Sequence record: NC_019768.1
Direction: 5' to 3' (one strand)
Length of the DNA stretch: 41,468 nucleotides
Source of the DNA: Escherichia phage HK106
The notes beneath the pieces are model-generated. The model did no database searches, was not told the DNA's origin, and saw nothing but the letters and a program-made list of their open reading frames with translations. Numbering within the stretch: position 1 is the first letter of the stretch; the number at the start of each line of letters is the position of its first letter. Positions 2,008-38,013 of the stretch are shown piece after piece. The position numbers and the translations under genes are program-made.

Positions 2008-3281
2008 TGGAAGAACCTAAATACACGATTGACCTGCGAACCAATAACGGCTGGTGGGCAAGGCTGCAGTCCTGGTTTGTCGGCGGGCGTTTAGTCACCC
2101 CAAATCAGGGCTCACAGACGGGGCCTGTTTCGGCCCACGGACACCTGGGCGATTCATCCATTAACGATGAACGGATACTGCAAATTTCGACTGTGTGGCG
2201 CTGCGTGAGCCTGATTTCAACGCTCACGGCATGCTTACCGCTTGATGTCTTCGAAACAGACCAGAATGACAACCGTAAAAAAGTGGATTTGAGCAATCCA
2301 CTGGCGCGACTGCTGCGCTACTCACCGAATCAGTACATGACCGCCCAAGAATTCAGGGAGGCCATGACGATGCAGCTCTGTTTCTACGGTAACGCATATG
2401 CACTTGTGGACCGCAACAGCGCAGGTGACGTGATCAGCCTTCTCCCGCTTCAGTCTGCCAATATGGATGTGAAGCTCGTCGGAAAAAAAGTGGTTTATCG
2501 CTATCAACGCGACAGCGAATACGCCGACTTTTCGCAGAAAGAGATTTTTCACCTTAAAGGCTTCGGATTCACCGGGCTTGTAGGCCTGTCACCCATTGCT
2601 TTTGCCTGTAAATCGGCAGGTGTGGCAGTTGCGATGGAGGACCAGCAGCGAGATTTCTTTGCCAACGGCGCCAAGTCTCCGCAAATCCTCTCAACTGGCG
2701 AAAAAGTGCTAACTGAACAGCAGCGCTCCCAGGTCGAAGAGAACTTCAAAGAGATCGCCGGCGGCCCGGTAAAAAAACGCCTCTGGATTCTGGAAGCGGG
2801 TTTTTCTACATCGGCAATTGGCGTAACTCCGCAGGATGCCGAAATGATGGCGTCCCGAAAATTTCAGGTAAGTGAACTGGCGCGATTCTTTGGCGTACCG
2901 CCTCACCTTGTCGGCGACGTCGAGAAATCAACGAGCTGGGGATCGGGCATCGAGCAGCAGAATCTCGGCTTCCTGCAGTACACCCTGCAGCCCTATATCT
3001 CCAGGTGGGAAAACAGCATTCAGCGGTGGCTTATTCCTGCTAAGGATGTTGGCCGCATTCATGCTGAGCACAACCTCGACGGCCTGCTGAGGGGCGATTC
3101 GGCATCCCGCGCTGCCTTTATGAAGGCAATGGGAGAGGCAGGGCTACGCACCATCAACGAGATGCGACGAACGGACAACCTCCCGCCATTGCCGGGTGGC
3201 GATGTGGCAATGCGCCAGTCGCAATACGTGCCGATCACCGATTTAGGAACCAACAAAGAGCCCCGTAATAACGGGGCTTAA
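2007..3281 (+). CDS. portal protein (HK97 family)
   Basis: about 424 aa; ATG at 2007 overlaps the terminase stop (TGATG); track start 2004 is GTG; size and position typical of HK97-type portal. Confidence 0.85.
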   Translation: MEEPKYTIDLRTNNGWWARLQSWFVGGRLVTPNQGSQTGPVSAHGHLGDSSINDERILQISTVWRCVSLISTLTACLPLDVFETDQNDNRKKVDLSNPLARLLRYSPNQYMTAQEFREAMTMQLCFYGNAYALVDRNSAGDVISLLPLQSANMDVKLVGKKVVYRYQRDSEYADFSQKEIFHLKGFGFTGLVGLSPIAFACKSAGVAVAMEDQQRDFFANGAKSPQILSTGEKVLTEQQRSQVEENFKEIAGGPVKKRLWILEAGFSTSAIGVTPQDAEMMASRKFQVSELARFFGVPPHLVGDVEKSTSWGSGIEQQNLGFLQYTLQPYISRWENSIQRWLIPAKDVGRIHAEHNLDGLLRGDSASRAAFMKAMGEAGLRTINEMRRTDNLPPLPGGDVAMRQSQYVPITDLGTNKEPRNNGA

Positions 3282-3286
3282 TTTTT

Positions 3287-3976
3287 ATGGGGGCCGTAAT
3301 GCCTGAAATCGTAAAAACGCTGTCCTTCGACGAGACAGAAATCAAATTCACCGGTGACGGTAAACAGGGGATTTTTGAAGGCTACGCCTCTGTTTTTAAT
3401 AACACCGATTCCGCTGGCGACATCATTCTGCCCGGGGCGTTTAAAAACGCGCTGGCGAACCAGACCCGAAAAGTGGCGATGTTTTTTAACCACAGGACGT
3501 GGGAACTGCCGGTTGGCAAATGGGACAGCCTGGCTGAAGACGAAAAAGGCCTGTATGTGCGCGGTCAACTTACCCCAGGACACAGCGGCGCCGCTGACCT
3601 GAAAGCGGCAATGCAGCACGGTACGGTTGAAGGTATGTCGGTTGGCTTTTCCGTTTCGAAAGACGATTACACCATCATTCCAACAGGCCGCATTTTTAAG
3701 AATATCCAGGCTCTGCGAGAAATCAGCGTCTGCACTTTCCCCGCCAACGAACAGGCTGGCATCGCAGCCATGAAAAGTGTCGATGGCATTGAAACGATTC
3801 GTGATGTGGAGAACTGGCTGAGGGATTCAGTCGGCCTCACCAAATCACAGGCAGTTGGGCTAATTGCCCGGTTTAAGTCAGCGATTCGGAGCGAGTCCGA
3901 GGGCGACGGAAACGAAGCACAAATAAACGCTCTGCTTCAGAGCATCAAATCTTTCCCTTCTAACTTAGGTAAATAA
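3287..3976 (+). CDS. prohead maturation protease (HK97 gp4-like)
   Basis: 229-aa ORF between portal and major capsid protein; alternative in-frame ATG at 3299. Confidence 0.8.
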   Translation: MGAVMPEIVKTLSFDETEIKFTGDGKQGIFEGYASVFNNTDSAGDIILPGAFKNALANQTRKVAMFFNHRTWELPVGKWDSLAEDEKGLYVRGQLTPGHSGAADLKAAMQHGTVEGMSVGFSVSKDDYTIIPTGRIFKNIQALREISVCTFPANEQAGIAAMKSVDGIETIRDVENWLRDSVGLTKSQAVGLIARFKSAIRSESEGDGNEAQINALLQSIKSFPSNLGK

Positions 3977-5133: not shown

Positions 5134-5142
5134 TGATGGAGG

Positions 5143-5166
5143 GGGCGGGGAAACCCGCCCTTTTAA
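5143..5166 (+). terminator. intrinsic terminator-like hairpin after the capsid gene
   Basis: GGGGCGGG-gaaa-CCCGCCC followed by TTTTAA directly after the capsid stop codon. Confidence 0.5.
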
Positions 5167-5169
5167 CGT

Positions 5170-5496
5170 ATGGCGATAGATGTTCTGGATGTAATTCCCC
5201 TCAGTCTGTTTAAGCAGCAGATTGAGTTTGAGGAAGACGACAGGGACGAGCTGATCACGCTGTACGCCCAGGCCGCTTTTGACTACTGCATGCGCTGGTG
5301 CGATGAACCAGCATGGAAGGTTGCGGCTGATATTCCTGCCGCCGTTAAGGGCGCCGTTCTGCTTGTCTTTGCTGACATGTTTGAACACCGGACGGCACAA
5401 AGTGAAGTGCAGCTTTATGAGAATGCAGCCGCCGAACGCATGATGTTCATTCATCGCAACTGGCGCGGTAAAGCCGAATCAGAGGAGGGCTCCTGA
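5170..5496 (+). CDS. head-tail connector / DNA packaging protein (gp6-like)
   Basis: 108-aa ORF immediately after the capsid gene, typical position and size. Confidence 0.6.
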   Translation: MAIDVLDVIPLSLFKQQIEFEEDDRDELITLYAQAAFDYCMRWCDEPAWKVAADIPAAVKGAVLLVFADMFEHRTAQSEVQLYENAAAERMMFIHRNWRGKAESEEGS

Positions 5497-7388: not shown

Positions 7389-7422
7389 TGGAGATGCCGG
7401 GTTGTCCCGGCATGGATAAGCG

Positions 7423-7809
7423 ATGTCGCAAACTTTAAAACAATTAGCCATGGCGAAAATGGCTGGCTTTCGCCATAAGACGGTCGTTGTCCCTGAGTGG
7501 GAAGGTGTCAAAGTGGTTCTCCGTGAGCCGTCAGGTGAAGCCTGGCTGCGCTGGCAGGAGGTGGTGAAAGGGGGGGCCGACGATGAAAATGTGTCGGTAT
7601 CGGAAAAGGCGCACCGTAATCTTTGCGCTGACGTGGTGCTCTTCATTGACGTTCTGTGTGACACCGATAAGCAACCGGTATTCAGCGTAGACGAAGAAGA
7701 GCAGGTGCGTGAAATTTACGGGCCAGTGCACTCACGTCTGCTCAAACAGGCGCTTGACCTGATCAACAATGCGGACGAAGCGCGGGAAAAGTCTCAACCC
7801 CCGGCGTAA
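7423..7809 (+). CDS. tail assembly chaperone G
   Basis: 128-aa ORF between major tail and tape measure genes; overlapped at its 3' end by a -1 frame ORF. Confidence 0.7.
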   Translation: MSQTLKQLAMAKMAGFRHKTVVVPEWEGVKVVLREPSGEAWLRWQEVVKGGADDENVSVSEKAHRNLCADVVLFIDVLCDTDKQPVFSVDEEEQVREIYGPVHSRLLKQALDLINNADEAREKSQPPA

Positions 7810-8096
7810 AGTTTCTGATGTCGCTTGCGCTCCGGATGGGGCGCACGCTCTCAGAGCTTCGGCAGAATATGACGGCAAGCGAGCTTCTGATGTGGATTGA
7901 GTACGACAGGCAAAGCCCGGTTGGCGATATTCGCGGTGATATCCATGCAGCGCAGATTGTCTCTGCCATCTACGGCTCGCAGGGGGCAAAAGTACCGCTG
8001 GACGATGCGATCCTGCGCTGGGGTGGTGATGAGCAATCAGAACCGAAGGACCCGTTTGCAGGGCTTGAGGCGGCACTTACAGCTGCGACACAATAA
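7423..8096 (+). CDS. tail assembly chaperone GT fusion (predicted programmed -1 frameshift)
   Basis: -1 frame is open from at least 7782 to 8096 and overlaps the end of G; candidate slippery run GGGAAAAG at 7784-7791; downstream product resembles the phage tail assembly protein T family. Confidence 0.5.
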
Positions 8097-8153
8097 TTGC
8101 TTCACATGCCTTCAATGTAGCGATACGCTCTTTCCTTAAGTAAAGGAGGCGTT

Positions 8154-8342
8154 ATGGAACCACTGGTAGTAGTGTTTGGAATATTCGGCTGGCTGATAAA
8201 TCTAATTGTGATTTTTTATTTATTACGGTTTAGCACAAGGGCAAATGAACAAGTTGAAGCCCTTAAAGAGATAAATAAAAAGCAAGATGCGCAAATAGAT
8301 TTATTAATACAAGTCGCTCACCAAAGAAAAGACAGTTTATAA
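8154..8342 (+). CDS. small single-TM moron protein, HK97 gp15 / YebO-like putative superinfection exclusion protein
   Basis: 62 aa, strong SD AAGGAGG, N-terminal hydrophobic helix then charged helix; sits between GT and tape measure where HK97 carries the gp15 moron; followed by its own terminator. Confidence 0.55.
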   Translation: MEPLVVVFGIFGWLINLIVIFYLLRFSTRANEQVEALKEINKKQDAQIDLLIQVAHQRKDSL

Positions 8343-8345
8343 CTC

Positions 8346-8372
8346 ACGACCCGCTATCAAGCGGGTTTTTTT
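8346..8372 (+). terminator. intrinsic terminator
   Basis: CCCGCT-atca-AGCGGG followed by TTTTTTT. Confidence 0.7.
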
Positions 8373-8384
8373 ATGGGTGAAAAT

Positions 8385-11300
8385 ATGGCTACGTTGCGCG
8401 AACTGATCATCAAAATATCTGCAAACTCTCAGTCATTCCAGTCTGAAATTTCTCGTGCTTCAAGAATGGGGAATGACTATTACCGGGTAATGCAGACTGG
8501 AGGACGCCAATCGGCCGCAGCTTCGCGTGAAACTCAGCGTGCCTTGGCTGAGGTAACTAGTCAAATAAACACCGCGAAGGCCTCAGCACTGGGAATGGCT
8601 GGTGCATTTGCTGGAGCATTTGCGACTGGTCATCTTATATCGCTGGCCGATGAATGGAGCTCTATTAATGCCAGGCTAAAGCAGGCTTCCCAGTCGTCAG
8701 ATGATTTCACGGAGTCCCAGCGGGCGCTGATGGATATTAGCCAGCGAACCGGAACCGCCTTCTCTGATAATGCGAGTCTTTTTGCGCGTTCAGCCGCTTC
8801 TATGCGTGAATATGGCTACAGTTCAGAAGAGGTTCTGAAGGTAACCGAGGCTATATCAACAGGGCTTAAGCTGTCAGGCGCAAGCGCGTCTGAAGCGAGT
8901 TCGGTAATCACGCAGTTCAGCCAGGCTCTGGCGCAGGGTGTTCTTCGAGGCGAGGAATTTAACTCCGTCAACGAAAACGGTGATCGAGTTATCCGTGCTC
9001 TTGCCGCAGGGATGGGTGTAGCTCGTAAAGATCTGAAGGCAATGGCCGATCAGGGGATGCTAACCGCAGATAAAGTTGTCCCGGCCCTGATAAGTCAACT
9101 TGGCACTATGCGTGGTGAATTTGAGGCAATGCCGCAGACCGTTTCTGCTGCCACGACGAAAGTCGAAAATGCTTTCATGGCATGGGTAGGTGGCGCTAAT
9201 GAAGCCACTGGTGCGACAAGTACTCTTGTTGCCGTATTGAATACGGTTTCTGACAATATAGACACTGTGGCTACGGCTGCCGGAGCTTTGGCTGCGATAG
9301 GTGGAGCTCGCTATCTTGGAGGGATGTTTGGCGATCTTGGGAACCAGACGGCGCAATTAATAGATGCCAGAAAGAACGAAATTGCGCTCGCAGCTGCAAG
9401 GGCTGAATCTGCTACCCAATCACAACGCAAGGCCGCCGCCGATGCTATTGCTGCTGAGCGAGCTTACCAGCTTGCTCAGTCAGAACTTGTGCTGGCAAAG
9501 AATACTAATGCTGAGGCTACTGCCACTCAAAATGCCATATCCAAGCGCCGGGCAATGATTACAGCAAATGCGGCACTGGTACAGTCAAACAGAGCCGTTG
9601 CAGCCTCTCAGCAGGCACTTAACTCTGCAACATCAGTGCTGGGGCTTGTAAAAACTGGCGCTACGGGTCTTTTGTCGTTAGTTGGTGGTTTGCCAGGAAT
9701 TTTAATGTTGGGTGCTGGGGCGTGGTACACGATGTATCAACGCCAAGAACAAGCCAGGGAATCTGCAATCAAATATGCGGACACAATAGAGCAGGTACGA
9801 GATAATCTGAAATCAATGTCTCAGACGCAGATATCCGCCAACCTTGGACAGGCGAATATTTCACTGGATGCTCAGAATAGTGCGATTGAACAGCAGAAGC
9901 AGAAAGTTGCTGAATTATCCAATCAACTTTATAACGCAAAATTAGCAGCCAATTCTGCTTCAGAGGGGACATGGCTGTATAACGATGCGGTTGAGAAAGC
10001 CGCAGACTTTGCTTCAGAACTTGCGGTTGAAGAAGGCCGACTTGAGCAAATGCTCAATAAAAGAAAGCAAACACAACAGTTAATAAACGACATAACTGAT
10101 CAGGCTATAAATAAAACAGTAGAAATGGCTGGCGCCGTAAGTTCTCTTACAGAGATGTATGACCGGCTGAACAAGGTTTCCAGACAGTCTACAGCAGTGT
10201 CCCCACCAAAATATGCAGGACCTGTACTTCCTGCGCTTGATAATAAGCAACAACAAGCTATTGAGAAAGCACAGCGACAGCTTGAGTTATCTGGCCTTCA
10301 GGGTTTGGATAAGGCTCGAAAGCAGGCAGAATTCGATGCATCTGATCTGAACCTTCCAGCTGGTTGGCGTGAGAAATATGTCAGCATGGAAGTTGAGTCT
10401 GCCAGGCAATTACAAGCAATTCGTAACTCAAGCCGCCATAAGGGTGGAAAATCCGAGGCGGAAAAAACAGCTGATACCTATGACAAGCTGATCAAGCAGC
10501 AAAAAGAGCAGATCGCTCTGCAAGGGCAGAATACCGAGCTGGCAAAGGTTAAATATCAGGTAAGCCAGGGTGAGCTTTCTACGCTAAGTCAGGCCCAGAA
10601 AGCCGAAGTTATGCGTAATGCTGCTCTCATCGATCAGGTTAAATTGCGTGAGCAACTGCGAAATTACGAAGCCAACCTTGCTGACAGTAACGCCAGCGCC
10701 CGCGCAGCCAATGAAGCGCAACTGCTGGGATACGGGCAGGGAACCAGGTTCCGTGAAAGACTTCAGGAGCAGTTCAATCTGCGTAAGGAGTTTGAGCAGA
10801 AGAATACCGATCTTCTCCGCCAGCGTCAGGCTGGTGAAATCGACGAGACGTTCTATCAGCAGGGGCTGGCACTTAATAAGCGCTACCTCGAAGAGCGCCT
10901 GCGCGACCAGGAGGGATATTACGCAGCTTCTGATGCGCAGCGTGACGACTGGATGACGGGACTGTCTGAGGGTTATGCGAACTGGGTGGACGAAGCGACA
11001 GATTACTCCTCCATGGCCGCTGACGGCATGAAGCAGGCCATGGGTGGCGCGGTCACCACGATCACCGACATGCTCAATGGCAACGTTGACAGCTGGAAGG
11101 ACTGGGGCGTGAGCGTACTGAAGATCATCCAGAACGTTCTGGTGAACATGGCTGTTGCTAACGGCGTCAGTTCAATTGGTTCTCTCTTCAGCTTTGGCGC
11201 ATCTTCCGCCGCTGCCGCCAGTAGCGGTACTGCAATTCAGAACGCTGGCGCGAACTTCACCTTTAACGCGAAGGGTAATGTTTACGACTCTCCGTCCCTG

Positions 11301-11651
11301 AGCGCATACAGCAATGGCGTGTTTCAGACCCCTCAGCTTTTTGCTTTTGCCAAAGGAGCGGGTGTGTTTGCAGAGGCTGGACCTGAAGCCATTATGCCGC
11401 TTACCCGTGCTGCTGATGGTTCGCTTGGCGTTCGGGCTGTTGGCACTGGTGGTGGTCAGGCTGTATCTTCGGCTCCACAGGTTTACATCACCATCGATGG
11501 CAACGGAAATACTTCCACGCAGACTTCACCCGGCCTTGAGCAATTTGGTGCTGATGTCGGTAAATATATTGATCAGCGATATAAGCAGAACATCATGCGA
11601 GATATTCGCCCTGGCGGTGACATCTGGAACGCAATGAAAGGAACCCGATAA
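8385..11651 (+). CDS. tail tape measure protein
   Basis: about 1088 aa, long alpha-helical/coiled-coil protein with Gly/Ala-rich C-terminal region; an in-frame ATG at 8373 lies inside the terminator T-tract, so 8385 is preferred. Confidence 0.9.
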   Translation: MATLRELIIKISANSQSFQSEISRASRMGNDYYRVMQTGGRQSAAASRETQRALAEVTSQINTAKASALGMAGAFAGAFATGHLISLADEWSSINARLKQASQSSDDFTESQRALMDISQRTGTAFSDNASLFARSAASMREYGYSSEEVLKVTEAISTGLKLSGASASEASSVITQFSQALAQGVLRGEEFNSVNENGDRVIRALAAGMGVARKDLKAMADQGMLTADKVVPALISQLGTMRGEFEAMPQTVSAATTKVENAFMAWVGGANEATGATSTLVAVLNTVSDNIDTVATAAGALAAIGGARYLGGMFGDLGNQTAQLIDARKNEIALAAARAESATQSQRKAAADAIAAERAYQLAQSELVLAKNTNAEATATQNAISKRRAMITANAALVQSNRAVAASQQALNSATSVLGLVKTGATGLLSLVGGLPGILMLGAGAWYTMYQRQEQARESAIKYADTIEQVRDNLKSMSQTQISANLGQANISLDAQNSAIEQQKQKVAELSNQLYNAKLAANSASEGTWLYNDAVEKAADFASELAVEEGRLEQMLNKRKQTQQLINDITDQAINKTVEMAGAVSSLTEMYDRLNKVSRQSTAVSPPKYAGPVLPALDNKQQQAIEKAQRQLELSGLQGLDKARKQAEFDASDLNLPAGWREKYVSMEVESARQLQAIRNSSRHKGGKSEAEKTADTYDKLIKQQKEQIALQGQNTELAKVKYQVSQGELSTLSQAQKAEVMRNAALIDQVKLREQLRNYEANLADSNASARAANEAQLLGYGQGTRFRERLQEQFNLRKEFEQKNTDLLRQRQAGEIDETFYQQGLALNKRYLEERLRDQEGYYAASDAQRDDWMTGLSEGYANWVDEATDYSSMAADGMKQAMGGAVTTITDMLNGNVDSWKDWGVSVLKIIQNVLVNMAVANGVSSIGSLFSFGASSAAAASSGTAIQNAGANFTFNAKGNVYDSPSLSAYSNGVFQTPQLFAFAKGAGVFAEAGPEAIMPLTRAADGSLGVRAVGTGGGQAVSSAPQVYITIDGNGNTSTQTSPGLEQFGADVGKYIDQRYKQNIMRDIRPGGDIWNAMKGTR

Positions 11652-11653
11652 AA

Positions 11654-11992
11654 ATGGCTATCGAAACTTTCACCTGGTGCCCACGACTTAACGCTGAGGC
11701 AGATATAAATTTCCGCGTCAGGAAAGCACAGTTTGGTGATGGATATGAGCAGGTTTCAGGGGATGGATTGAACACCAGAACCCAGCAATGGACGCTCAAC
11801 TTCACTGGCAACGAAACCTACATTTCTGCCATTAAATCTTTTCTCGACAGGCATGAAGGAACGAAAGCCTTTCAATGGAAGCCACCGCTCGAACCTTTGG
11901 GTTTGTATCGTTGCGAAACGTATAAACCCACCGGGCTTGGCGCGGGGAAATTCAACCTTGAAGCAACATTCATCCAGGCATTTAAACCATGA
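11654..11992 (+). CDS. minor tail protein M
   Basis: 112 aa directly after tape measure, lambda M-like size and position. Confidence 0.8.
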   Translation: MAIETFTWCPRLNAEADINFRVRKAQFGDGYEQVSGDGLNTRTQQWTLNFTGNETYISAIKSFLDRHEGTKAFQWKPPLEPLGLYRCETYKPTGLGAGKFNLEATFIQAFKP

Positions 11993-12747
11993 GCTTAAAC
12001 GCAGATTATCAGAAGCTGGAATCCGGAAACGATGTTCGTCTGATTGAGGTGGACGGTTCTTCCTTTGGGCTAACGGACGTTCTCCGCTTTCACAATTACA
12101 GCATTCCCCACACAGAAGCGGAAATCATCGCCGCTGGTGGGGATGAGTCCAAGCTTCCGGCGAAACCAATCTGGTGGCAGGGAAATGAATACGCCGCCTG
12201 GCCGTATCAGCTGGAAGGTCTGGAGAAATCAACCAGTGGGAGCAATGCAACGCCATCACTGACGGTTGCGAACATCGAAAGCTCCATTTCTGCTCTGTGT
12301 CTTGCGTATGACGATCTGCTGCAGGCTAAAGTCACTATTCACGACACAAAAGAGAAATATCTCGATGCCAGGAATTTCGCAGACGGTAACCCTTCTGCAG
12401 ACCAGACTCAGGAAAAGCTGCAGGTCTGGTATATCGACGGGAAAACGGGCGAGCTTGCCGGTGAAACCGTTGAATTTGTTCTGTCCAGCCCGATGGACCT
12501 GCAGGGGCAAATGATCCCGACGCGACAGCTTCATTCCCTGTGTACCTGGTGCATCCGGAATAAATATCGCACCGGCGACGGCTGCGACTATGCCGGCACC
12601 CGCTATTTCGACAAAAACAACAACCCGGTAAGCGATCCGTCGCTGGATGAATGCAACGGCACGCTGACGGCCTGCAAACTCCGATTCGGCGAAAATAACG
12701 AACTCTCGTTTGGTGGCTTCCCGGGCACGTCTTTGATCAGGAGTTGA
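11989..12747 (+). CDS. minor tail protein L
   Basis: 252 aa, ATGA overlap with M; Cys-rich C-terminal region as in lambda L. Confidence 0.8.
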   Translation: MSLNADYQKLESGNDVRLIEVDGSSFGLTDVLRFHNYSIPHTEAEIIAAGGDESKLPAKPIWWQGNEYAAWPYQLEGLEKSTSGSNATPSLTVANIESSISALCLAYDDLLQAKVTIHDTKEKYLDARNFADGNPSADQTQEKLQVWYIDGKTGELAGETVEFVLSSPMDLQGQMIPTRQLHSLCTWCIRNKYRTGDGCDYAGTRYFDKNNNPVSDPSLDECNGTLTACKLRFGENNELSFGGFPGTSLIRS

Positions 12748-12748
12748 T

Positions 12749-13459
12749 ATGCGTCAGAAAACCGTCGATGAGATTATGGCGCATGCTGCAGCTGAATATC
12801 CTCGCGAGTGTTGCGGCGTGGTGGCGCAGAAAAGCCGTGTTGAACGTTATTTCCCGTGCCGGAATCTTGCCGCGGCGCCGGAGGACAATTTTGTCCTTTG
12901 CCCGGAAGATTACGCAGCTGCTGAGGACTGGGGTACGGTGATCGCCATCGTTCACAGTCACCCTGACGCCACAACGCAACCGAGCGAACTGGATAAAGCG
13001 CAATGCGACGCAACGCTTTTACCCTGGCACATCGTGAGCTGGCCTGAGGGGGATTTGCGCACCATCCAGCCGCGTGGGGAACTGCCGCTGCTGGAGCGTC
13101 CGTTTGTGCTTGGCCACTTCGACTGCTGGGGTCTGGTAATGAGCTATTTCCGGCAAACGCATGGTATCGAGCTCCACGATTACCGGGTTGATTATCCCTG
13201 GTGGGAAAACGACTATCCGGACAACTTCTATCAGGATTGCTGGTATGAGTGCGGATTCCGTGAATTCGACGGACCACCGAAACCCGGCGATATGGTGATC
13301 ATGCAGGTCCAGGCTGATAAGTGGAACCACGCTGGAATTCTGCTGGAGGGCAATATGCTGCTGCACCACCTGTACGGACATCTGAGCCAGCGCGTGCCGT
13401 ATGGTGGCTACTGGCAGGAAAGGACGATGAAGATTCTTAGACATCAGAATTTTATTTAA
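12749..13459 (+). CDS. tail assembly protein K (MPN/JAB + NlpC/P60-like)
   Basis: 236 aa; HSHP metal-binding motif and a later DCWG cysteine motif, as in lambda K. Confidence 0.8.
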   Translation: MRQKTVDEIMAHAAAEYPRECCGVVAQKSRVERYFPCRNLAAAPEDNFVLCPEDYAAAEDWGTVIAIVHSHPDATTQPSELDKAQCDATLLPWHIVSWPEGDLRTIQPRGELPLLERPFVLGHFDCWGLVMSYFRQTHGIELHDYRVDYPWWENDYPDNFYQDCWYECGFREFDGPPKPGDMVIMQVQADKWNHAGILLEGNMLLHHLYGHLSQRVPYGGYWQERTMKILRHQNFI

Positions 13460-13506
13460 CAAACTGTCACTGATACTATCGTGTAGTACACGGCAAGGAG
13501 AACGAT

Positions 13507-13731
13507 ATGTATACAGTTGGGTTTGGTTGGATCTTCGTCGGTATTTTTATTGGGTTAATTCTCTGGTTTTTCATCAACCGCGCCAGCGTCAGAGCGAACA
13601 GGCAGGTTGAATTACTTGAGTCTATCGACCAGAAATTATCAAAAATAGTAGATCCAAACTTCGAGGCAAATAACAAAGACCAGTCGAAAGAAAACTACCT
13701 TGAAGAAGCAAGGAAAAAAGCTGGGCTTTGA
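13507..13731 (+). CDS. second small single-TM moron protein, paralog of the 8154-8342 product
   Basis: 74 aa, SD AAGGAG; N-terminal TM helix then shared motif R-A-S/T-V/R-R-A-N-x-Q-V-E-x-L; own terminator downstream; inserted between K and I. Confidence 0.55.
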   Translation: MYTVGFGWIFVGIFIGLILWFFINRASVRANRQVELLESIDQKLSKIVDPNFEANNKDQSKENYLEEARKKAGL

Positions 13732-13740
13732 GAGCGTAAA

Positions 13741-13770
13741 TTAATAAACCACCTACGGGTGGTTTTTTTA
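13741..13770 (+). terminator. intrinsic terminator
   Basis: AACCACC-tacg-GGTGGTT followed by TTTTTTA. Confidence 0.7.
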
Positions 13771-13780
13771 TGGGGGCAGC

Positions 13781-14389
13781 ATGCAAGAGGTAATGACAAG
13801 AATTGAGCTAAGTGGCGTGCTAGCTAAGACATATGGAAGGGTTCATCACCGTCTGGTTCGCACTACTGCTGAAGCCATTAATGCACTCGCGAAAACCATC
13901 AATGGATTCGAGAAATTCTTAAACACAAGCAAAGCCCGAGGGCTGACGTATGCCGTTTATAGAGATAAAAAGAATATTGGCGTTGATGATCTCGGCTTTC
14001 CCGTCACCGGCGAAGTGATCCGGATTGTCCCTGTAGTAATAGGGAGTAAAAAGGCTGGTCTTTTGCAGACGATCTTGGGGGCCGTGCTTATTACTGCTGC
14101 TGTGTTGACTGGCCCCGGCGGTATTGGCGCTGCTTTCGCTGCTGGTGGATTGACGGGGTTTGCTGCTGCCACTGGTGCCTCGTTGGTCCTCGGTGGGGTT
14201 ATTCAGCTGCTTTCACCGCAGCCATCAGGCATAGCCAGTAAACAAAGCGCAGATAACCGTGCATCGTATGCGTTTGGCGGGGTAACCAACACTGCAGCGC
14301 AAGGCTACCCGGTGCCTCTGCTTTATGGTAAGCGTCGAATCGGCGGAGCGATTATTTCTGCCGGAATTTATGTCGAAGATCAGCAGTAG
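13781..14389 (+). CDS. tail assembly protein I
   Basis: 202 aa; N-terminal ubiquitin-like region and Gly/Ala-rich hydrophobic C-terminal half resembling lambda I. Confidence 0.8.
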   Translation: MQEVMTRIELSGVLAKTYGRVHHRLVRTTAEAINALAKTINGFEKFLNTSKARGLTYAVYRDKKNIGVDDLGFPVTGEVIRIVPVVIGSKKAGLLQTILGAVLITAAVLTGPGGIGAAFAAGGLTGFAAATGASLVLGGVIQLLSPQPSGIASKQSADNRASYAFGGVTNTAAQGYPVPLLYGKRRIGGAIISAGIYVEDQQ

Positions 14390-14401
14390 ATAACTAACCT
14401 T

Positions 14402-14431
14402 TTTTCTGGCCACCTTCGGGTGGCTTTTTTA
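14402..14431 (+). terminator. intrinsic terminator between I and J
   Basis: GGCCACC-ttcg-GGTGGC followed by TTTTTTA. Confidence 0.65.
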
Positions 14432-14441
14432 TGGGCGCAAT

Positions 14442-17400
14442 ATGGCTACAGATAAAGTGTTAAAAGGCCGCAAGGGCGGCAGCTCAAGTTCCCGAACTCC
14501 TACCGAACAGCCTGATGATCTGCAATCTGTAGCGAAGGCAAAAATCCTCGTTGCGCTTGGGGAAGGTGAGTTTGCAGGGCAGCTCACCGGCAAAGATATC
14601 TACCTGGACGGAACAGCGCTGGAGAATGCTGACGGCTCCCAAAACTTCAGCGGGGTAACGTGGGAGTTTCGCGCGGGAACTCAGGCGCAAAAATATATTC
14701 AGGGTATTCCCGGTACCGAAAACGAGATCAGCGTAGGAACTGAGGTATCAAGTGCCACAGCCTGGACGCGCACGTTTACCAATACGCAGCTTTCAGCAGT
14801 TCGCCTGCGTCTTAAATGGCCCTCGCTTTTCAAACAGGAGGACGACGGCGATCTGGTGGGTTACTCGGTCAATTATGCAATTGACCTGCAGACGGACGGC
14901 GGCGCATGGCAGACGGTACTCAATACCAGCGTGACCGGAAAAACGACGTCTGGTTATGAGCGCAGCCACCGTATCGATTTACCGCAGGCTGGCAGCACCT
15001 GGACAATACGTCTGCGTAAGATTACCTCTGACGCCAACAGCGCGAAGATCGGCGACACGATGATGCTGCAGAGCTTCACCGAGGTGATTGACGCCAAACT
15101 GCGCTACCCGAACACCGCGCTGCTCTACGTCGAATTCGACTCAAGCCAGTTCAACGGCTCTATTCCTCAAATTTCATGCGAACCGCGCGGCCGCGTTATC
15201 CGCGTTCCAGATACCTACGACCCTGAAACCCGCACTTATAGCGGTACATGGACCGGTGCGTTTAAGTGGGCATGGACGGATAACCCTGCGTGGATTTTTT
15301 ACGACCTGGTTGTTTCTGACCGGTTCGGCCTTGGGCACCGTTTGACCGCTGCGAATATTGATAAATGGACGCTTTATCAGGTTGCTCAGTATTGTGATCA
15401 GATGGTACCAGACGGCAAAGGGGGCAACGGTACAGAACCACGTTATACCTGCAACGTGTACATTCAGGACCGGAACGACGCCTACACAGTCCTGCGTGAT
15501 TTTGCCGCTATCTTCCGTGGCATGACCTACTGGGGCGGGGATCAGATTGTGGCCCTGGCTGACATGCCGCGCGATGTTGATTACAGCTATACGCGCGCTA
15601 ACGTTGTTGGCGGTCGCTTCACCTATTCGAGCAGCACCACGAAAAGCCGCTACACCACAGCGCTGGTTTCATGGTCAGACCCGGGTAACGCTTATGCCGA
15701 CGCGATGGAGCCGGTATTTGAGCAGGCGCTGGTGGCGCGGTACGGCTTCAATCAGCTGGAAATGACAGCCATCGGCTGCACCAGGCAGTCAGAGGCGAAC
15801 CGAAAGGGGCGCTGGGGTATTCTCACCAATAACAAGGATCGCGTTGTTTCGTTTGATGTCGGGCTGGACGGAAACATTCCGCAGCCGGGCTACATCATCG
15901 CCGTGGCAGACGAGCTGCTTTCCGGAAAGGTTATGGGCGGCCGCATCAGCGCCGTTAACGGTCGCGTTATCAAACTTGACCGCGTAGCTGATGCAGCACC
16001 AGGTGATCGCCTTATTCTCAACCTACCTTCCGGAGCGTCGCAGAGCAGGACCATTCAGGCCGTGAACGGGGAATCAGTCACAGTCACCACGGCATACAGT
16101 GAGACGCCACAGGCCGAAGCTGTTTGGGTGGTTGAATCTGACGAGCTTTACGCGCAGCAGTATCGTGTTGTCAGCGTCTCCGACAACGGTGATGGCACTT
16201 TCTCAATCACCGGCGCATGGCACGACCCGGATAAATATGCCCGCATCGATACCGGAGCCATCATTGACCAGCGGCCGGTGAGCGTGATCCCGCCTGGTAA
16301 CCAGTCGCCGCCTGCGAACATCGTGATCAGCTCGTTTTCCGTGGTTCAGCAAAATATCAGCGTCGAAACAATGCGCGTGAGCTGGGACCAGGCGCAGAAC
16401 GCTATCGCCTATGAAGCGCAATGGCGCCGCAACGACGGGAACTGGGTTAACGTGCCGCGCACCTCCACCACGTCATTCGACGTCCCGGGGATTTATGCCG
16501 GGCGCTACCTGGTGCGGGTGCGCGCAATCAATGCCGCAGAAATTTCATCCGGATGGGGCTATTCAGAAGAGAAAACGCTGACGGGTAAAGTGGGCAATCC
16601 ACCGAAGCCTGTTGGCTTTATCGCCTCTGAAAACGTGGTGTTCGGTATCGAGCTGAACTGGGGATTCCCGGCGAATACCGACGACACGCTGAAGACGGAA
16701 ATTCAGTACAGCCTGACCGGTACTGAAGACGATGCCATGCTGCTGGCCGATGTGCCTTACCCGCAGCGCAAATATCAGCAGATGGGCCTTAAGGCTGGGC
16801 AGATTTTCTGGTACCGCGCGCAGCTGGTTGACCGCAGCGGTAACGAGTCAGGTTATACCGGCTGGGTTCGTGGGCAGGCCAGTATCGATGTTTCTGACAT
16901 CACAGATGTGATCCTTGAAGACATCAAAGGGTCTGAGACGTTCAAAGACCTGATCGAGAACGCTGTGGACAGCAATGAAAAAATTGCTGGCATGGCTGAC
17001 GACATCAAACAGGCCAATGATGAACTTGAGCAGCATGCGAAGGATATCGCCAAAAACGCCCAGGACGTCGGGAAGGTTCAGACCAGCGTTAATGAGCTTT
17101 CCAGCACGGTCGGGAATGTTTCGTCTTCACTCAGTCAGCTTGAGCAGACCGTTGCGACGGCTGATACCGCGCTGGGCCAGCGAATCGACAGCATCAGTGT
17201 GTCTATGGACGGCATGACGGGTGGGGTCAAGAACTCAGCCATTGCCATTATCCAGAACGGGCTGGCGCAGGTGGCTGCGCGTAAAACCCTGTCTGCATCG
17301 GTCGCCGGCAACAGCGCGAATCTGGACCGTATTGATGAGGTGATTGTCAACGACAGGGAGGCAACGGCGCGCTCGCTGCTTAGCCTGCAGACGGACGTCA

Positions 17401-19276: not shown

Positions 19277-19294
19277 CTCATGATTTTCAATGCA

Positions 19295-19320
19295 AACCTC
19301 GCCTCGGCGGGGTTTTTTAT
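19295..19320 (+). terminator. intrinsic terminator
   Basis: CCTCGCC-tc-GGCGGGG followed by TTTTTTA. Confidence 0.6.
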
Positions 19321-19334
19321 TGCCTGGAGAAAAT

Positions 19335-20288
19335 ATGCTTTATAACACTGGAACCATCGCCATTAACGGAAACAGCGCCACCGGCACGGGCACGAACTGG
19401 ACGGCACCCGCCAGCCAGGTTCGCGCTGGCCAGACGATTATCGTGATGTCTAACCCGGTGCAGCTGTTTCAGATTTCATCCGTGAACAGCGCCACGTCAA
19501 TGACGGTTACTCCAGCTGCTTCCCCTGCGCTGAGCGGCCAGAAGTATGGAATTCTGGTATCAGACAATATCTCGGTTGATGGGCTGGCGCTGGCCATGTC
19601 GCAGCTTATCAAGGAGTATGACGAGAATATTGGTGCGTGGGAGACGTTCGCCACAACCTCAGCAAACCAAAGCATCACAGTTACCATCAACGGCACCGCC
19701 GTAACCATCCCAGGCATCGGTAAACTTGCGCAGAAAGGGAGCAACGGTGCGGTTACTGTCGCAGACGGCGGAACCGGCGCAACGAATGCCGCAGACGCTC
19801 GCACAAACCTTGGTTTGGGAGAAGGCTCTGCATTACCTGTTGGTGTCCCTGTTCCGTGGCCTTCCGCCACTCCGCCAACAGGCTGGCTGAAATGCAACGG
19901 TGCGGTTTTTTCTGCTGAAGAATACCCGGAACTGGCAAAGGCTTATCCAACAAATAAATTGCCAGATTTACGTGGTGAGTTTATTCGTGGCTGGGATGAC
20001 GGGCGTGGGGTCGATTCAGGGCGAGCGCTGCTGTCCGCACAAGGTGATGCTATAAGGGACATATCAGGGAAGCTCTTGGGACTTATGACCACTGCGGGAA
20101 GCCAGATGACAGCAGACGAGTGGGTAACAGGGGCATTTAATGCTGTATACGAAGGCGGCGCTGGTCAAACAACCTCATCGCCCGGTAGTAGGTATGACGT
20201 AGGTTTTTCCGCCGCCAGAGTTGTACCAACTGCGGAAGAAAACCGACCACGTAACATTGCATTTAACTACATTGTAAGGGCATCATGA
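19335..20288 (+). CDS. side tail fibre protein with C-terminal collar-like domain
   Basis: about 317 aa from the ATG at 19335 (SD GGAG); C-terminal motif LPDLRGEFIRGWDDGRGVDSGR typical of phage tail fibre collar domains; the track start 19290 lies inside the terminator. Confidence 0.8.
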   Translation: MLYNTGTIAINGNSATGTGTNWTAPASQVRAGQTIIVMSNPVQLFQISSVNSATSMTVTPAASPALSGQKYGILVSDNISVDGLALAMSQLIKEYDENIGAWETFATTSANQSITVTINGTAVTIPGIGKLAQKGSNGAVTVADGGTGATNAADARTNLGLGEGSALPVGVPVPWPSATPPTGWLKCNGAVFSAEEYPELAKAYPTNKLPDLRGEFIRGWDDGRGVDSGRALLSAQGDAIRDISGKLLGLMTTAGSQMTADEWVTGAFNAVYEGGAGQTTSSPGSRYDVGFSAARVVPTAEENRPRNIAFNYIVRAS

Positions 20289-20896
20289 TGACCACAAAAA
20301 AAATCACTTTGGATGAAAACGGATTTGCAACAGAAGCTGGCTTCATCACCGTTTACAACTACAGCGGTGAAACGCGGGAATATATTTCCACATCAACTGA
20401 ATATCTTGCCGTTGGTGTCGGTATCCCGGCATGTTCTTGTTTAGATGCACCAGTTACACATAAAGCTGGTTATGCAATCTGCCGTTCTGCAGATTTTAAC
20501 TCATGGGAATATGTGCCAGACCATCGCGGTGAAATCGTTTTTAGCACCGAAACAGGGGAATCAAAAGAAATCACAGCTCCGGGTGATTACCCTGATAATA
20601 CAACCACTATCGCCCCGTTAACCCCATACGATAAATGGGATGGTGAGAAATGGGTGACGGATACCGAGGCACAGCACGGCGCAGCAGTAGATGCAGCAGA
20701 AGCACAGCGCCAGTCGCTGATTGATACTGCAATGGCCTCCATCAGTCTGATTCAGCTGAAATTGCAGGCCGGACGTAAACTGACGCAGGCAGAAACAACC
20801 CGCCTTAACGCTGTGCTGGATTACATTGACGCGGTGACGGCAACAGATACCAGCACCGCGCCGGATGTCATCTGGCCTGAACTGCCGGAGGCGTAG
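20285..20896 (+). CDS. tail fibre assembly protein (Tfa)
   Basis: 203 aa, ATGA overlap with the fibre gene; Tfa-like sequence. Confidence 0.8.
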   Translation: MMTTKKITLDENGFATEAGFITVYNYSGETREYISTSTEYLAVGVGIPACSCLDAPVTHKAGYAICRSADFNSWEYVPDHRGEIVFSTETGESKEITAPGDYPDNTTTIAPLTPYDKWDGEKWVTDTEAQHGAAVDAAEAQRQSLIDTAMASISLIQLKLQAGRKLTQAETTRLNAVLDYIDAVTATDTSTAPDVIWPELPEA

Positions 20897-21224
20897 GCCA
20901 TTCAATATCTGGCGCACCGGAAGTATCGACCAGCTCCAGTGCGTCCAGTTGACATCCTCCACGCCCTGAAGGACGGGGTTTTACGGCGCACCGGATAAAT
21001 CCAAATGGAGTTTCGGGAGATAAATGAAACCGCAGCCACGTCGTATGCAAGAACGTGCTGCGGCTGGCTGGCGAACTTTCGATAGTGCGAGTATTGAATG
21101 ATTTCCAGCCGTTACCGATTTTACTATGTTTTCAGTAGAACGCTTAGACAAAACTGAGGCGCACAAAGCTTTGCACTGGACTGCAAGGTGTTGTGCTTCT
21201 CTGGAGTGCGATATGTTTGATGAC

Positions 21225-21262
21225 AAAAAATTAGCGCAAGAGGACAACAAATCACCTTGCGC
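21225..21262 (-). terminator. sib / tI-like hairpin terminator downstream of int
   Basis: GCGCAAG…CTTGCGC hairpin with a T-tract on the minus strand; same arrangement as lambda sib/tI next to attP. Confidence 0.5.
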
Positions 21263-21411
21263 TAATGCTCTGCTACAGGTCACTAATACTATCTAAGTAG
21301 TTGATTCATAGTGACTGGATATGTTGTGTTTTGTCGCATTATGTAGTCTATTTTTTAGACTAAATATATTGTAATGCATTGATATTAATGGTTTTTAATG
21401 TTTCACGTTCA

Positions 21412-21426
21412 GCTTTTTTATACTAA
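21412..21426. other. attP core, lambda type
   Basis: CAGCTTTTTTATACTAAGTTGG with AT-rich arm sequences on both sides, adjacent to int; core is present once and intact. Confidence 0.85.
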
Positions 21427-21499
21427 GTTGGCATTATAAAAAAGCATTGCTTATCAATTTGTTGCAACGAACAGGTCACTATCAGTCAAAATAAAATCA

Positions 21500-22570
21500 T
21501 TATTTGATTTCAATTTTGTCCCACTCCCTGCCTCTGTCATCACGATACTGTGATGCCATGGTGTCCGACTTATGCCCGAGAAGATGTTGAGCAAACTTAT
21601 CGCTTATCTGCTTCTCATAGAGTCTTGCAGACAAACTGCGCAACTCGTGAAAGGTAGGCGGATCCCCTTCGAAGGAAAGACCTGATGCTTTTCGTGCGCG
21701 CATAAAATACCTTGATACTGTGCCGGATGAAAGCGGTTCGCGACGAGTAGATGCAATTATGGTTTCTCCGCCAAGAATCTCTTTGCATTTATCAAGTGTT
21801 TCCTTCATTGATATCCCGAGAGCATCAACATGCAATGTTGTAGGTATGGCAATTTTTACGCCTGTTTTGCTTTGCTCGACATAAAGATAGCCATCTACGA
21901 TATCAGACCACTTCATTTCGCATAAATCACCAACTCGTTGCCCGGTAACAACAGCCAGTTCCATTGCAAGTCTGAGCCAACATGGTGATGATTCTGCTGC
22001 TTGATAAATTTTCAGGTATTCGTCAGCTGTAAGTCTTGATCTCCTTACCTCTGATTTTGCTGCGCGAGTGGCAGCGACCGGGTTTGTTGTTATATGGCCT
22101 TCAGCTATTGCCTCTCGGAATGCATCGCTCAGTGTTGATCTGATTAACTTGGCTGATGCCGCCTTGCCCTCGTCTATGTATCCATTGAGCATTGCCGCAA
22201 TTTCTTTTGTGGTGATGTCTTCAAGTGGAGCATCAGGCAGACCCCTCCTTATTGCTTTAATTTTGCTCATGTAATTTATGAGTGTCTTCTGCTTGATTCC
22301 TCTGCTGGCCAGGATTTTTTCGTAGCGATCAAGCCATGAATGTAACGTAACGGAATTATCACTGTTGATTCTCGCTGTCAGAGGCTTGTGTTTGTGCCCT
22401 GAAAATAACTCAATGTTGGCCTGTATAGCTTCAGTGATTGCGATTCGCCTGTCTCGGCCTAATCCAAACTCTTTACCCGTCCTTGGGTCCCTGTAGCAGT
22501 AATATCCATTGTTTCTTATATAAAGATTAGGGGGTAAATCCCGGCGCTCATGACTTCGCCTTCTTCCCAT
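21500..22570 (-). CDS. int: tyrosine integrase (lambda Int-like)
   Basis: 356 aa, matches lambda Int over its whole length as I recall it; overlaps xis. Confidence 0.95.
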   Translation of the reverse strand: MGRRRSHERRDLPPNLYIRNNGYYCYRDPRTGKEFGLGRDRRIAITEAIQANIELFSGHKHKPLTARINSDNSVTLHSWLDRYEKILASRGIKQKTLINYMSKIKAIRRGLPDAPLEDITTKEIAAMLNGYIDEGKAASAKLIRSTLSDAFREAIAEGHITTNPVAATRAAKSEVRRSRLTADEYLKIYQAAESSPCWLRLAMELAVVTGQRVGDLCEMKWSDIVDGYLYVEQSKTGVKIAIPTTLHVDALGISMKETLDKCKEILGGETIIASTRREPLSSGTVSRYFMRARKASGLSFEGDPPTFHELRSLSARLYEKQISDKFAQHLLGHKSDTMASQYRDDRGREWDKIEIK

Positions 22571-22766
22571 TTCTGATCCTCTTCAAAAGGCTACCTGTTA
22601 CTGGTCGATTTAAGTCAACCTTTACCGCTGATTCGTGGAACAGATACTCTCTTCCATCCTTAACCGGAGGTGGGAATATCCTGCACTCGCGTACCCATCG
22701 ACGAACTGTTTCAAGGCTTCTTGGGCGTCGCTGGCGAGCGTTCCACTCCTGAAGTGTCAAGTACAT
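22548..22766 (-). CDS. xis: excisionase (lambda Xis-like)
   Basis: 72 aa MYLTLQEWNARQRRPRSLETVRRWVRECRIFPPP…, overlaps int start. Confidence 0.95.
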   Translation of the reverse strand: MYLTLQEWNARQRRPRSLETVRRWVRECRIFPPPVKDGREYLFHESAVKVDLNRPVTGSLLKRIRNGKKAKS

Positions 22767-22790
22767 CGCAAAGTCTCCGCAATTACACGC

Positions 22791-22815
22791 AAGAAAAAAC
22801 CGCCATCAGGCGGTT
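22791..22815 (-). terminator. intrinsic terminator-like hairpin upstream of xis
   Basis: minus strand AACCGCC-tgat-GGCGGTT followed by TTTTTTCTT; overlaps the stop of the 55-aa ORF. Confidence 0.45.
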
Positions 22816-22973
22816 TGGTGTTCTTTCAGTTCTTCAATTCGAATATTGGTTACGTCTGCATGTGCTATCTGCGCCCACAGCATCCAGTGGTCATAGCAGT
22901 CGTTGATGTCCTCTGCTTCGATAACTCTGTTGAATGGCTCTCCATTCCATTCACCTGTGACTCGGAAGTGCAT
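22806..22973 (-). CDS. hypothetical 55-aa protein
   Basis: ATG with SD GGAGA 7 nt upstream; below the 60-aa track cut-off; hand-translated MHFRVTGEWNGEPFNRVIEAEDINDCYDHWMLWAQIAHADVTNIRIEELKEHQTA. Confidence 0.4.
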   Translation of the reverse strand: MHFRVTGEWNGEPFNRVIEAEDINDCYDHWMLWAQIAHADVTNIRIEELKEHQTA

Positions 22974-23030
22974 TTATCATCTCCATAAAACAAAACCCGC
23001 CGTAGCGAGTTCAGATAAAAGAAACCCGCA

Positions 23031-26214: not shown

Positions 26215-26237
26215 AATGGAATCCTTATTTTTCTATA

Positions 26238-37975: not shown

Positions 37976-38013
37976 TGACATCAACGATGGATAAATTCAC
38001 TCGTTAAATAAAG

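Follow-up and report, generated by a model that had tools for sequence, protein, structure and literature searches.

Read-through of internal terminators is an established property of Q-modified RNA polymerase. In the moron concept of Juhala et al. 2000, as recounted in PMC3594210, a gene with its own promoter and terminator is inserted into the late operon, and the published model, again as given there, combines insulation in the lysogen with read-through under Q. Expression of gp15 from the prophage has been reported (PMC3594210). In P22-like phages, variation at one late-operon slot has been explained by insertions and deletions recurring at a single ancestral site, and it may affect read-through into the next structural gene (PMC2629481). 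The core of what we describe here, that the moron slots of the HK97-type late operon are bounded by terminators, is textbook knowledge. Beyond existing annotation, we add a reading of the shared ATGGG as a Shine-Dalgarno (SD) element, an empty slot as the norm before gene J, a fourth copy of the arrangement, the paralogy of two YebO-family genes, and a 35-nt repeat.

The window, the whole 41,468-nt stretch of Escherichia phage HK106 that we analysed, belongs to an HK97-family lambdoid phage and is 99.8% identical to mEp234 across the tail stretch. HK97 (AF069529) and mEp234 (NC_019715) carry these elements at the corresponding junctions, with 98-99.8% identity over the stretch, and the GenBank records of both already annotate the T/H, K/I, and I/J terminators (that at T/H as rho-independent; in HK97 as putative terminators at 8398-8422, 13799-13824, and 15107-15129). 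HK97 has genes 22/23 upstream of its I/J terminator, which the window lacks; otherwise, nothing material sets the two apart. The preliminary description had reported a hairpin, a T-tract, and ATGGG at three junctions, with the next start within 10-15 nt and no moron in front of the third, and these observations hold: the trio lies at 8348-8387, 13746-13783, and 14408-14444, each start codon falls 11-12 nt past the end of the T-tract, and the stop of gene I at 14389 leaves 18 nt to the third hairpin. The genes and terminators concerned are as follows.

8154-8342, plus strand: gp15-like moron gene of the YebO family in the T/H slot, GC 0.35-0.39
8348-8372, plus strand: T/H intrinsic terminator; stem CCCGCT/AGCGGG at 8350-8365 (extended 8348-8367), loop ATCA, T7 at 8366-8372
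13507-13731, plus strand: another moron gene of the YebO family, occupying the K/I slot, GC 0.38-0.44
13746-13769, plus strand: K/I intrinsic terminator; stem (AAA)CCACC/GGTGG(TTT) at 13749-13762 (extended 13746-13765), loop TACG, T7 at 13763-13769
14408-14430, plus strand: I/J intrinsic terminator; stem GGCCACC/GGTGGCT at 14408-14425, loop TTCG, T6 at 14425-14430

All three sites have the anatomy of intrinsic terminators, with GC-rich stems of 6-8 pairs (at least 5 bp being expected), tetraloops, predicted folding energies of -13 to -17 kcal/mol in the direction of late transcription, and an uninterrupted U-tract directly 3' of the stem (T7, T7, and T6, where at least 5-6 is expected). The minus strand of the K/I site scores as a terminator too. 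TTTTTTATGGG has three exact matches in the window and five when up to one mismatch is allowed, compared to 1.04 +/- 0.93 expected, and the three sites form the top direct-repeat family in a repeat search. We rejected a chance origin of the shared motif, as none of 100 shuffles reached five matches and the repeat search ranked the sites first. In a small and closely related sample of relatives, 97.4% of I/J stem cells were paired, compared to 31-57% in slid controls, and two of the six stem pairs showed compensatory change while the loops varied freely. This retention of pairing through substitutions, small and closely related as the sample is, suggests that the I/J hairpin is kept by selection. 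The spacer upstream of it is variable among relatives. Minimum-energy folds also contain an outer helix of 3-5 bp, in which upstream ACUCA, CCU, or CCA pairs with UGGGU, GGG, or UGG and covers the SD; this helix is probably fortuitous.

The I/J hairpin is U-rich on both sides (CCTTTTTTCTG-hairpin-TTTTTT), and the Hfq small RNA PreS of lambda has its 3' end in an operon terminator, tL2a (bioRxiv 10.1101/2024.10.31.621285), which raises the idea that gene I gives rise, from its 3' portion, to an Hfq-binding small RNA ending in the I/J element. We consider this highly improbable: no promoter is evident, the upstream spacer varies, and Rfam at gathering threshold gave 0 matches in the window and in the tail regions of HK97, HK022, and lambda, so a known RNA family was rejected. 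The small RNAs of Tree et al. 2014 map to the PR' moron site, outside the tail genes (PMC4104026), and the PreS paper makes no mention of I/J (bioRxiv 10.1101/2024.10.31.621285), which leaves the comparison as an analogy.

The late operon that holds all of these sites is preceded, by similarity, by the parts of a Q-dependent lambdoid system, which lie before the lysis and morphogenesis genes.

37281-37901, plus strand: Q antiterminator gene, 99.5% identical to mEp234 Q
37947-37975, plus strand: PR'/qut-like site, by similarity only
38010-38038, plus strand: tR'-like terminator, by similarity only

Together, these features suggest, with a probability of roughly 0.7, that rho-independent terminators (a GC-rich hairpin with U6-7) are packed right against the ribosome-binding sites of H, I, and J at moron slots, and that they would stop transcription in the lysogen and be read through under Q. 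In this proposal, the T/H, K/I, and I/J junctions would be slots whose cargo lies between the upstream stop codon and the hairpin, and the terminator-ribosome-binding-site module would persist with or without cargo. Transcripts from moron or stray promoters would be halted before H, I, or J in a lysogen, while after induction, Q-modified RNA polymerase starting at PR' would read through, with the Q, PR'/qut-like, and tR'-like set driving the operon. The anatomy and conservation of the elements and the occurrence of Q and PR' are observed, whereas we infer termination, read-through, and insulation at these sites; the sequence is compatible with the earlier suggestion of an insulator that only Q antitermination makes readable. 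A simple scan for sigma-70-like sites (at least 9/12) found none before 8154 or 13507, so any promoter that the terminators would insulate against is putative.

The arrangement recurs at a junction that has no moron, and hairpins occur at further junctions of the late operon.

3258-3301, plus strand: fourth copy, at the portal/protease junction; hairpin 3258-3279, TAA, TTTTT, ATGGGGG at 3287-3293, CCGTA, protease ATG at 3299
19294-19338, plus strand: cor-like moron terminator, then ATTGCCTGGAGAAAAT and ATG; same layout without ATGGG
3258, 5142, 6642, 7394, 8348, 13746, 14408, and 19294, plus strand: eight late-operon junction hairpins, half of them without a moron

The fourth copy is one of the two one-mismatch matches to TTTTTTATGGG, and the 3' end of the portal gene contains its hairpin. 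HK97 has a putative terminator annotated at the counterpart (3309-3335), with the protease start placed at the second ATG. The arrangement is conserved in 80 loci, although the sampled relatives are all at least 96% identical, so this says little beyond conservation. Four of the eight hairpins carry both the T-tract and ATGGG; the cor-like moron terminator is instead followed by ATTGCCTGGAG.

Since half of the eight plus-strand hairpins lack a moron, it is possible, though we think it rather unlikely, that they act mainly in lytic growth, as partial attenuators, 3' stabilisers, or processing points of Q-driven late mRNA. Such hairpins would tune head and tail protein ratios and would not insulate during lysogeny, a role that is compatible with our main explanation. 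Several lie behind genes of high copy number (major head, major tail). Conservation of the I/J hairpin extends out to lambda; its U-tract is broken there (TTTTGTCATTT) and the terminator apparently weak. A moron in P22 is believed to affect how much read-through reaches the tailspike gene (PMC2629481). On the other hand, the uninterrupted T6-T7 tracts at our three sites are typical of efficient terminators, and two of the three come after morons, not after abundant structural genes.

ATGGG is better read as part of the next gene's ribosome-binding site than as a separate motif.

8373-8387, plus strand: SD and start of H, the tape-measure gene; ATGGGTGAAAAT + ATG, with ATGGG at 8373-8377, GGGTGA at 8375-8380, and the start ATG at 8385
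13770-13783, plus strand: SD and start of the tail gene I; ATGGGGGCAGC + ATG, with ATGGG at 13770-13774, SD GGGGG, and the start at 13781
14431-14444, plus strand: weak SD and start of J, a conservation island; ATGGGCGCAAT + ATG, with ATGGG at 14431-14435 and the start at 14442

ATGGG, presented in the preliminary description as a motif in its own right, consists of the first non-T bases (A, T) past the U-tract, followed by the G-rich SD of the downstream gene. The best anti-SD windows are AUGGGUGA for H (-6.7 kcal/mol, 25 nt upstream scanned) and AUGGGGGC for both gene I and the protease (-8.4 kcal/mol each). For these three genes, the pairing lies 4-12 nt upstream of the start, at the exact AUGGG window, and the energies (-6.7 to -8.4 kcal/mol) are inside the range of the phage's other genes. 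In relatives, ATTGGGTGA, ATTAGGTGA, or CGTCCGGAGAA stands in place of AUGGGUGA at T/H, and ATGGAGAA, ATTTGGAGG, or ATTGGAG occupies the SD position of gene I. T5 plus ATGGG is found in 11 of 37 distinct T/H alleles and 7 of 51 distinct K/I alleles; the others have ATTGGGTG, ATTAGGTG, ATTTGGAGG, ATTGGAG, or CGTCCGGAG, with the G-run retained and the ATG lost. Lambda-type I/J sites vary among ATGGAG, ACGGAG, and CTGGAG. Overall, the G-run is conserved in relatives, but another triplet stands where the ATG would be in several lambda-type I/J alleles, about half of those at K/I, and most at T/H.

The SD reading alone does not account for everything. Anti-SD pairing at J is weak (-2.4 kcal/mol), yet ATGGGCGCAAT has a minority frequency of 0.057, while in the J coding sequence the value is 0.13 for codon positions 1+2 and 0.30 for position 3. 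So poor an SD does not explain a conservation higher than that of the J coding sequence. The sharing of ATGGG by 4/8 hairpins also exceeds what a loose constraint of A/T followed by a G-run predicts, and common descent covers K/I and I/J only. A functional AUG, as an alternative start or as a mini-ORF that couples or tunes downstream translation, could draw on the in-frame ATGs at H (8373) and the protease (3287) and on T5+ATGG in 47/47 distinct HK97-type I/J alleles. We rejected it as very improbable because the frame is inconsistent and the ATG unconserved: neither the ATG at 13770 nor that at 14431 shares the frame of its gene (I and J, respectively), the in-frame ATG at 8373 is itself not conserved, and many alleles at T/H, at K/I, and at lambda-type I/J sites have ATT, ACG, CTG, or CGT instead of ATG and still retain the G-run. 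Furthermore, these ATGs have no SD of their own, only a U-tract preceding them, and the HK97 annotation puts the starts at the downstream ATGs.

The cargo at T/H and K/I has the marks of extra genes. Both moron ORFs match Pfam YebO above cutoff, and an alignment with 43% identity across 44 aa (E = 5e-9) makes them paralogs. Their GC differs from that of the flanks (about 0.52-0.60 overall, about 0.55 around the T/H gene); the I/J junction, which has no cargo in the window, shows no GC dip. In relatives, the T/H junction without cargo measures 45-47 nt, and in HK022 it is down to 19 nt; K and I overlap in lambda. The HK97 copy of the K/I moron gene has a CAG>TAG change. A terminator ends each cargo unit, but the same terminator also stands in empty junctions. 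Import of the terminator with a host yebO gene was rejected for K-12, where the yebO 3' hairpin differs and has neither T-tract nor ATGGG.

Among 78 HK97-type relatives, the I/J terminator is present in essentially all; the junction is empty in about 67 loci (gap about 52 nt), and the remaining loci, about 11, hold cargo that lies upstream of this hairpin. HK97 genes 22/23 are one example of such cargo. The third terminator, singled out earlier for having no moron, indeed has none, but this is the usual state and not an anomaly. When we queried E. coli genomes with the 52-nt I/J element, it was present in 12/5426, each time at J, which carries little information. Empty T/H sites likewise retain the hairpin, T-tract, and SD. 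The K/I and I/J terminator-ribosome-binding-site elements form a 35-nt repeat matching at 30/35 positions (86%) in the window, where the longest exact run is 11 nt, and in some relatives, they are exact repeats of 27-29 nt that end at ATGG. They are possibly copies of one another with a common origin. The proposal of repeated insertion of one cassette type is thus borne out in part, by the paralogous YebO morons, the K/I-I/J match, and the occurrence of related cargo genes in different slots in different phages; it does not explain why the terminator stays without cargo at I/J and T/H, or the fourth copy at the non-moron portal/protease junction.

These patterns invite two evolutionary readings. 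In the first, which we regard as unlikely, hairpin, T-tract, and ATGG are portable homology for the gain, loss, and movement of morons, and their conservation reflects that role. At T/H as well as at I/J, the right-hand joint between filled and empty junctions coincides with the hairpin's 5' foot (at T/H, homology between the filled locus L158 and the empty L153 restarts there), the exact K/I-I/J repeats end at ATGG, cargo families common to the T/H and K/I slots share 53-57% amino acid identity, two relatives (L041 and L043) have K/I elements similar to the T/H element of the window, and the I/J element is an island of conservation amid more variable I and J alleles. However, homology of 20-30 bp is short, as is the 11-nt run in the window; T/H hairpin sequences vary with cargo type, as expected if each cargo brought its own terminator; and selection acting on random joints would yield the same picture. 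In the second, offered tentatively and with low confidence, the I/J module would be an old resident of lambda-like tail clusters with a constrained sequence, and not a by-product of moron insertion. It would have been copied to K/I, where it gave gene I a new ribosome-binding site after a moron broke the K-I overlap, and orphan terminators would be docking sites installed in advance. If so, docking sites would make promoter-bearing cargo harmless and supply homology for moron exchange between junctions and phages.

What terminators with and without cargo add is modest and evolutionary: a terminator can outlast or precede its cargo, and the I/J hairpin is shared with lambda. Follow-up would help explain why morons build up at a few junctions, and whether terminator or cargo came first.

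Compared to known systems, the T/H and K/I units resemble the moron concept exemplified by HK97 gene 15, being low-GC extra genes that end in a terminator inside a Q-dependent late operon, and at T/H the cargo corresponds to the superinfection-exclusion gene of HK97 for gp15, which is YebO-like. They depart from it in that the terminator is not exclusive to cargo and is kept in empty I/J and T/H junctions and in the lambda I/J gap. The 3' hairpin of present-day K-12 yebO is unrelated to the phage terminators. The P22-like "ant moron" slot is alike in being a single late-operon junction with a high flux of cargo, but it belongs to another phage group and junction, and no common terminator-ribosome-binding-site sequence has been described there (PMC2629481). 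Lambda is a parallel for the machinery, as the window has the same parts of Q/PR'/tR' antitermination (Q gene, PR'/qut-like, and tR'-like sites) upstream of the late genes. The empty I/J gap of lambda also holds a counterpart of the I/J hairpin, with stem CCGCC/GGCGG, found in 76 lambda-type loci, and lambda has ATGGAGCG at the place equivalent to J's ATGGGCGCAAT.

The preliminary description placed a hairpin, a T-tract and ATGGG just ahead of a start codon at three tail-gene junctions, and sequence inspection found all three sites as described, preceding genes H, I and J (T/H, K/I and I/J). The gene order here is tail chaperone genes (G/T), tape-measure H, M, L, K, I and tip protein J, and since a Q antiterminator gene and PR'/qut-like and tR'-like sites are present, the tail genes form part of a Q-dependent late operon of the lambda type.

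Junction elements and Q-system features of HK106
8348-8387, plus strand: T/H element; CCCGCT-ATCA-AGCGGG, T7, ATGGGTGAAAAT, ATG at 8385
13746-13783, plus strand: K/I element; CCACC-TACG-GGTGG, T7, ATGGGGGCAGC, ATG at 13781
14408-14444, plus strand: I/J element; GGCCACC-TTCG-GGTGGCT, T6, ATGGGCGCAAT, ATG at 14442
3258-3279, plus strand: hairpin of a fourth copy at the portal/protease junction, in the portal 3' end; then TAA, TTTTT, ATGGGGG, CCGTA, ATG at 3299
37281-37901: Q antiterminator gene
37947-37975: PR'/qut-like site
38010-38038: tR'-like terminator

We found three exact occurrences of TTTTTTATGGG, and allowing up to one mismatch gave 5 matches against 1.04 expected, a count that no shuffle attains. 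Aligned by a repeat search, the three sites form the first-ranked direct-repeat family, and K/I and I/J are a 35-nt repeat at 86% in the window. The three hairpins have folding energies of -13 to -17 kcal/mol, and the sites have the predicted anatomy of efficient intrinsic terminators adjoining ribosome-binding sites, a pairing that we call the module. All three sites are annotated as rho-independent terminators in the RefSeq record of Escherichia phage mEp234, which is 99.8% identical to the window over 7400-15000 (mEpX1, HK75, HK97 and HK633, 97-99%), and as putative terminators in the HK97 GenBank record AF069529. The left arm of the window is near-identical to mEp234, and 19820-27820 (tail-fibre/integrase/early-left) matches it in patches only, so HK106 is a mosaic relative of mEp234 and not mEp234 itself.

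The nature of ATGGG was examined with the help of three sets of 80 loci each, taken around gene I, the H N-terminus and lambda gpI. Within the 25 nt ahead of the H, I and protease genes, the best 16S anti-Shine-Dalgarno pairing is exactly AUGGGUGA or AUGGGGGC, with energies (-6.7 to -8.4 kcal/mol) inside the range of the phage's other genes. A T-tract followed by ATGGG occurs in 11 of 37 distinct T/H alleles and 7 of 51 distinct K/I alleles; the remainder carry ATTGGGTGA, ATTAGGTGA, ATTTGGTGA, CGTCCGGAGAA, ATGGAGAA, ATTTGGAGG or ATTGGAG, lambda-type I/J sites carry ATGGAG, ACGGAG or CTGGAG, and ATTGCCTGGAGAA lies directly 3' of the cor-like moron terminator at 19294. Judged from these alleles, the constant feature of the module is a G-rich Shine-Dalgarno directly after the U-tract, and the ATG is incidental. 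A functional AUG within ATGGG is unlikely; this ATG shares the frame of H and of the protease gene, and not that of I or J. The HK97 protease is annotated to start at the second ATG of its site (the equivalent of 3299). I/J is the exception: T5 plus ATGG is present in 47/47 distinct HK97-type alleles, the 14 nt preceding J have a minority frequency of 0.057 compared to 0.131 at J codon positions 1+2 and 0.301 at position 3, and the Shine-Dalgarno before J is weak (-2.4 kcal/mol), which leaves residual conservation beyond what a Shine-Dalgarno explains.

The third terminator had been described as lacking a moron, and since gene I ends 18 nt 5' of its hairpin, no gene indeed precedes it. HK97 and HK022 have the same hairpin-T-tract-ATGG(G/A)CGC-ATG ahead of J, and there 500-700 bp with genes 22 and 23 separate gene I from the hairpin. 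Of 78 relatives, essentially all with this hairpin, about 67 have 46-56 nt between I and J (empty, as in the window) and about 11 have 318-879 nt. In lambda and 76 loci of its type, the gap is empty and 60 nt long, with the equivalent hairpin CCGCC-NNNN-GGCGG, TTTTGTCATTT, then ATGGAG. Pairing in the I/J stem holds in 97.4% of cells (26 distinct alleles) compared to 31-57% for slid controls, with compensatory change in 2 of 6 pairs and loops free to vary. By this sampling, the empty I/J state of the window is the common one. The element is unlikely to be the 3' end of an sRNA. Six filled I/J loci (L006, L009, L016, L027, L037, L059) carry a conserved structured non-coding stretch, absent from the window and without an Rfam match, about 140 nt 5' of the I/J terminator, between it and the start of reverse moron 23. 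Its hairpin covaries (CCAGTG/CACTGG, CCAGCG/CGCTGG, TCAGCG/CGCTGA), and no pair is broken on the minus strand, where plus-strand C-A positions become G-U; the stretch is therefore probably a 5' leader belonging to the reverse moron gene and not a plus-strand sRNA.

Likewise at T/H, about 14 loci whose gap measures 45-47 nt retain the hairpin, T8 and Shine-Dalgarno, and in filled loci L158 and L164 the module is exactly as in empty loci, with homology restarting at the hairpin's 5' foot. Since empty and filled T/H and I/J loci alike keep the module, cargo lies 5' of a module whose presence does not require it. A recurrent T/H cargo of relatives (L130-L136, L158, L164) encodes a protein of about 125 aa whose translation shows, by eye, hydrophobic stretches and a CxxC...CxxC zinc-ribbon-like motif; its two alleles have little detectable nucleotide similarity (blastn of L137 against L130 gave no match across the cargo) and an identical terminator hairpin, AACCGCTTCGGCGG.

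The portal/protease copy, one of two one-mismatch matches to TTTTTTATGGG, indicates that the arrangement is not tied to morons. It is among the 4 further plus-strand late-operon terminators in AF069529 (portal/protease, after the major head gene, and before and after the major tail gene), and a moron is absent at 4 of the 8 plus-strand late-junction hairpins (3258, 5142, 6642, 7394, 8348, 13746, 14408, 19294). After the major head gene (5134-5172), GGGCGGG-GAAA-CCCGCCC precedes TTTTAACGT and the ATG of the next gene with no Shine-Dalgarno between; GGAGG lies directly 5' of the hairpin, whose folding might place it near the start codon. After the major tail gene (7394-7425), GCCGGG-TTGT-CCCGGC runs directly into ATGGATAAGCG-ATG of gene G, a further hairpin-ATGG-start arrangement. 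The HK97 and mEp234 records list this hairpin as a terminator; it lacks a T-tract, and its standing as an intrinsic terminator is doubtful.

Repeated cassette insertion, or an element insulating morons, had been proposed, and our findings support this in part: the paralogous morons and the K/I-I/J repeat favor repeated insertion, while the module's presence without cargo does not. Moron ORFs 8154-8342 and 13507-13731, both within GC troughs, are 43% identical over 44 aa (E = 5e-9) and score above the Pfam YebO (PF13974) cutoff, which identifies both as predicted YebO-family small membrane proteins. HK97 gp15 is a superinfection-exclusion protein. In HK97 (L002 6560-6895 versus window 13455-13790), CAG>TAG interrupts the K/I moron ORF, intact in the window and HK022, and probably accounts for the absent gene 20 annotation. 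Further cargo families are common to the K/I and T/H slots of different phages (53-57% aa identity), and the modules may, non-exclusively, be linkers at which recombination exchanges morons. Between genomes, the K/I and I/J terminators match exactly over 27-28 nt, and within genomes at least 20 exact nt are common in 13/79 loci, 8 of these repeats being 27-29 nt and ending at ...ATGG. Since K and I overlap in lambda, it is reasonable to infer that the I/J module was copied to K/I, where it would have given gene I a new ribosome-binding site. K-12 yebO was rejected as the terminator source, its terminator being unrelated.

Q-modified polymerase reads through terminators. In the published moron model, an own promoter and terminator allow expression from a repressed prophage (PMC3594210). 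Together with the terminator-RBS anatomy, these suggest a likely function for the module: in a lysogen, it would keep non-antiterminated transcription out of H, I and J, and after induction it would be read through. Hairpins acting as attenuators or mRNA stabilizers in lytic growth would be compatible with such a block. As terminators, the elements were known and annotated before; only mildly new are the paralogy of the two YebO-like morons, the repeat relating K/I to I/J, and the orphan terminators that persist back to lambda.
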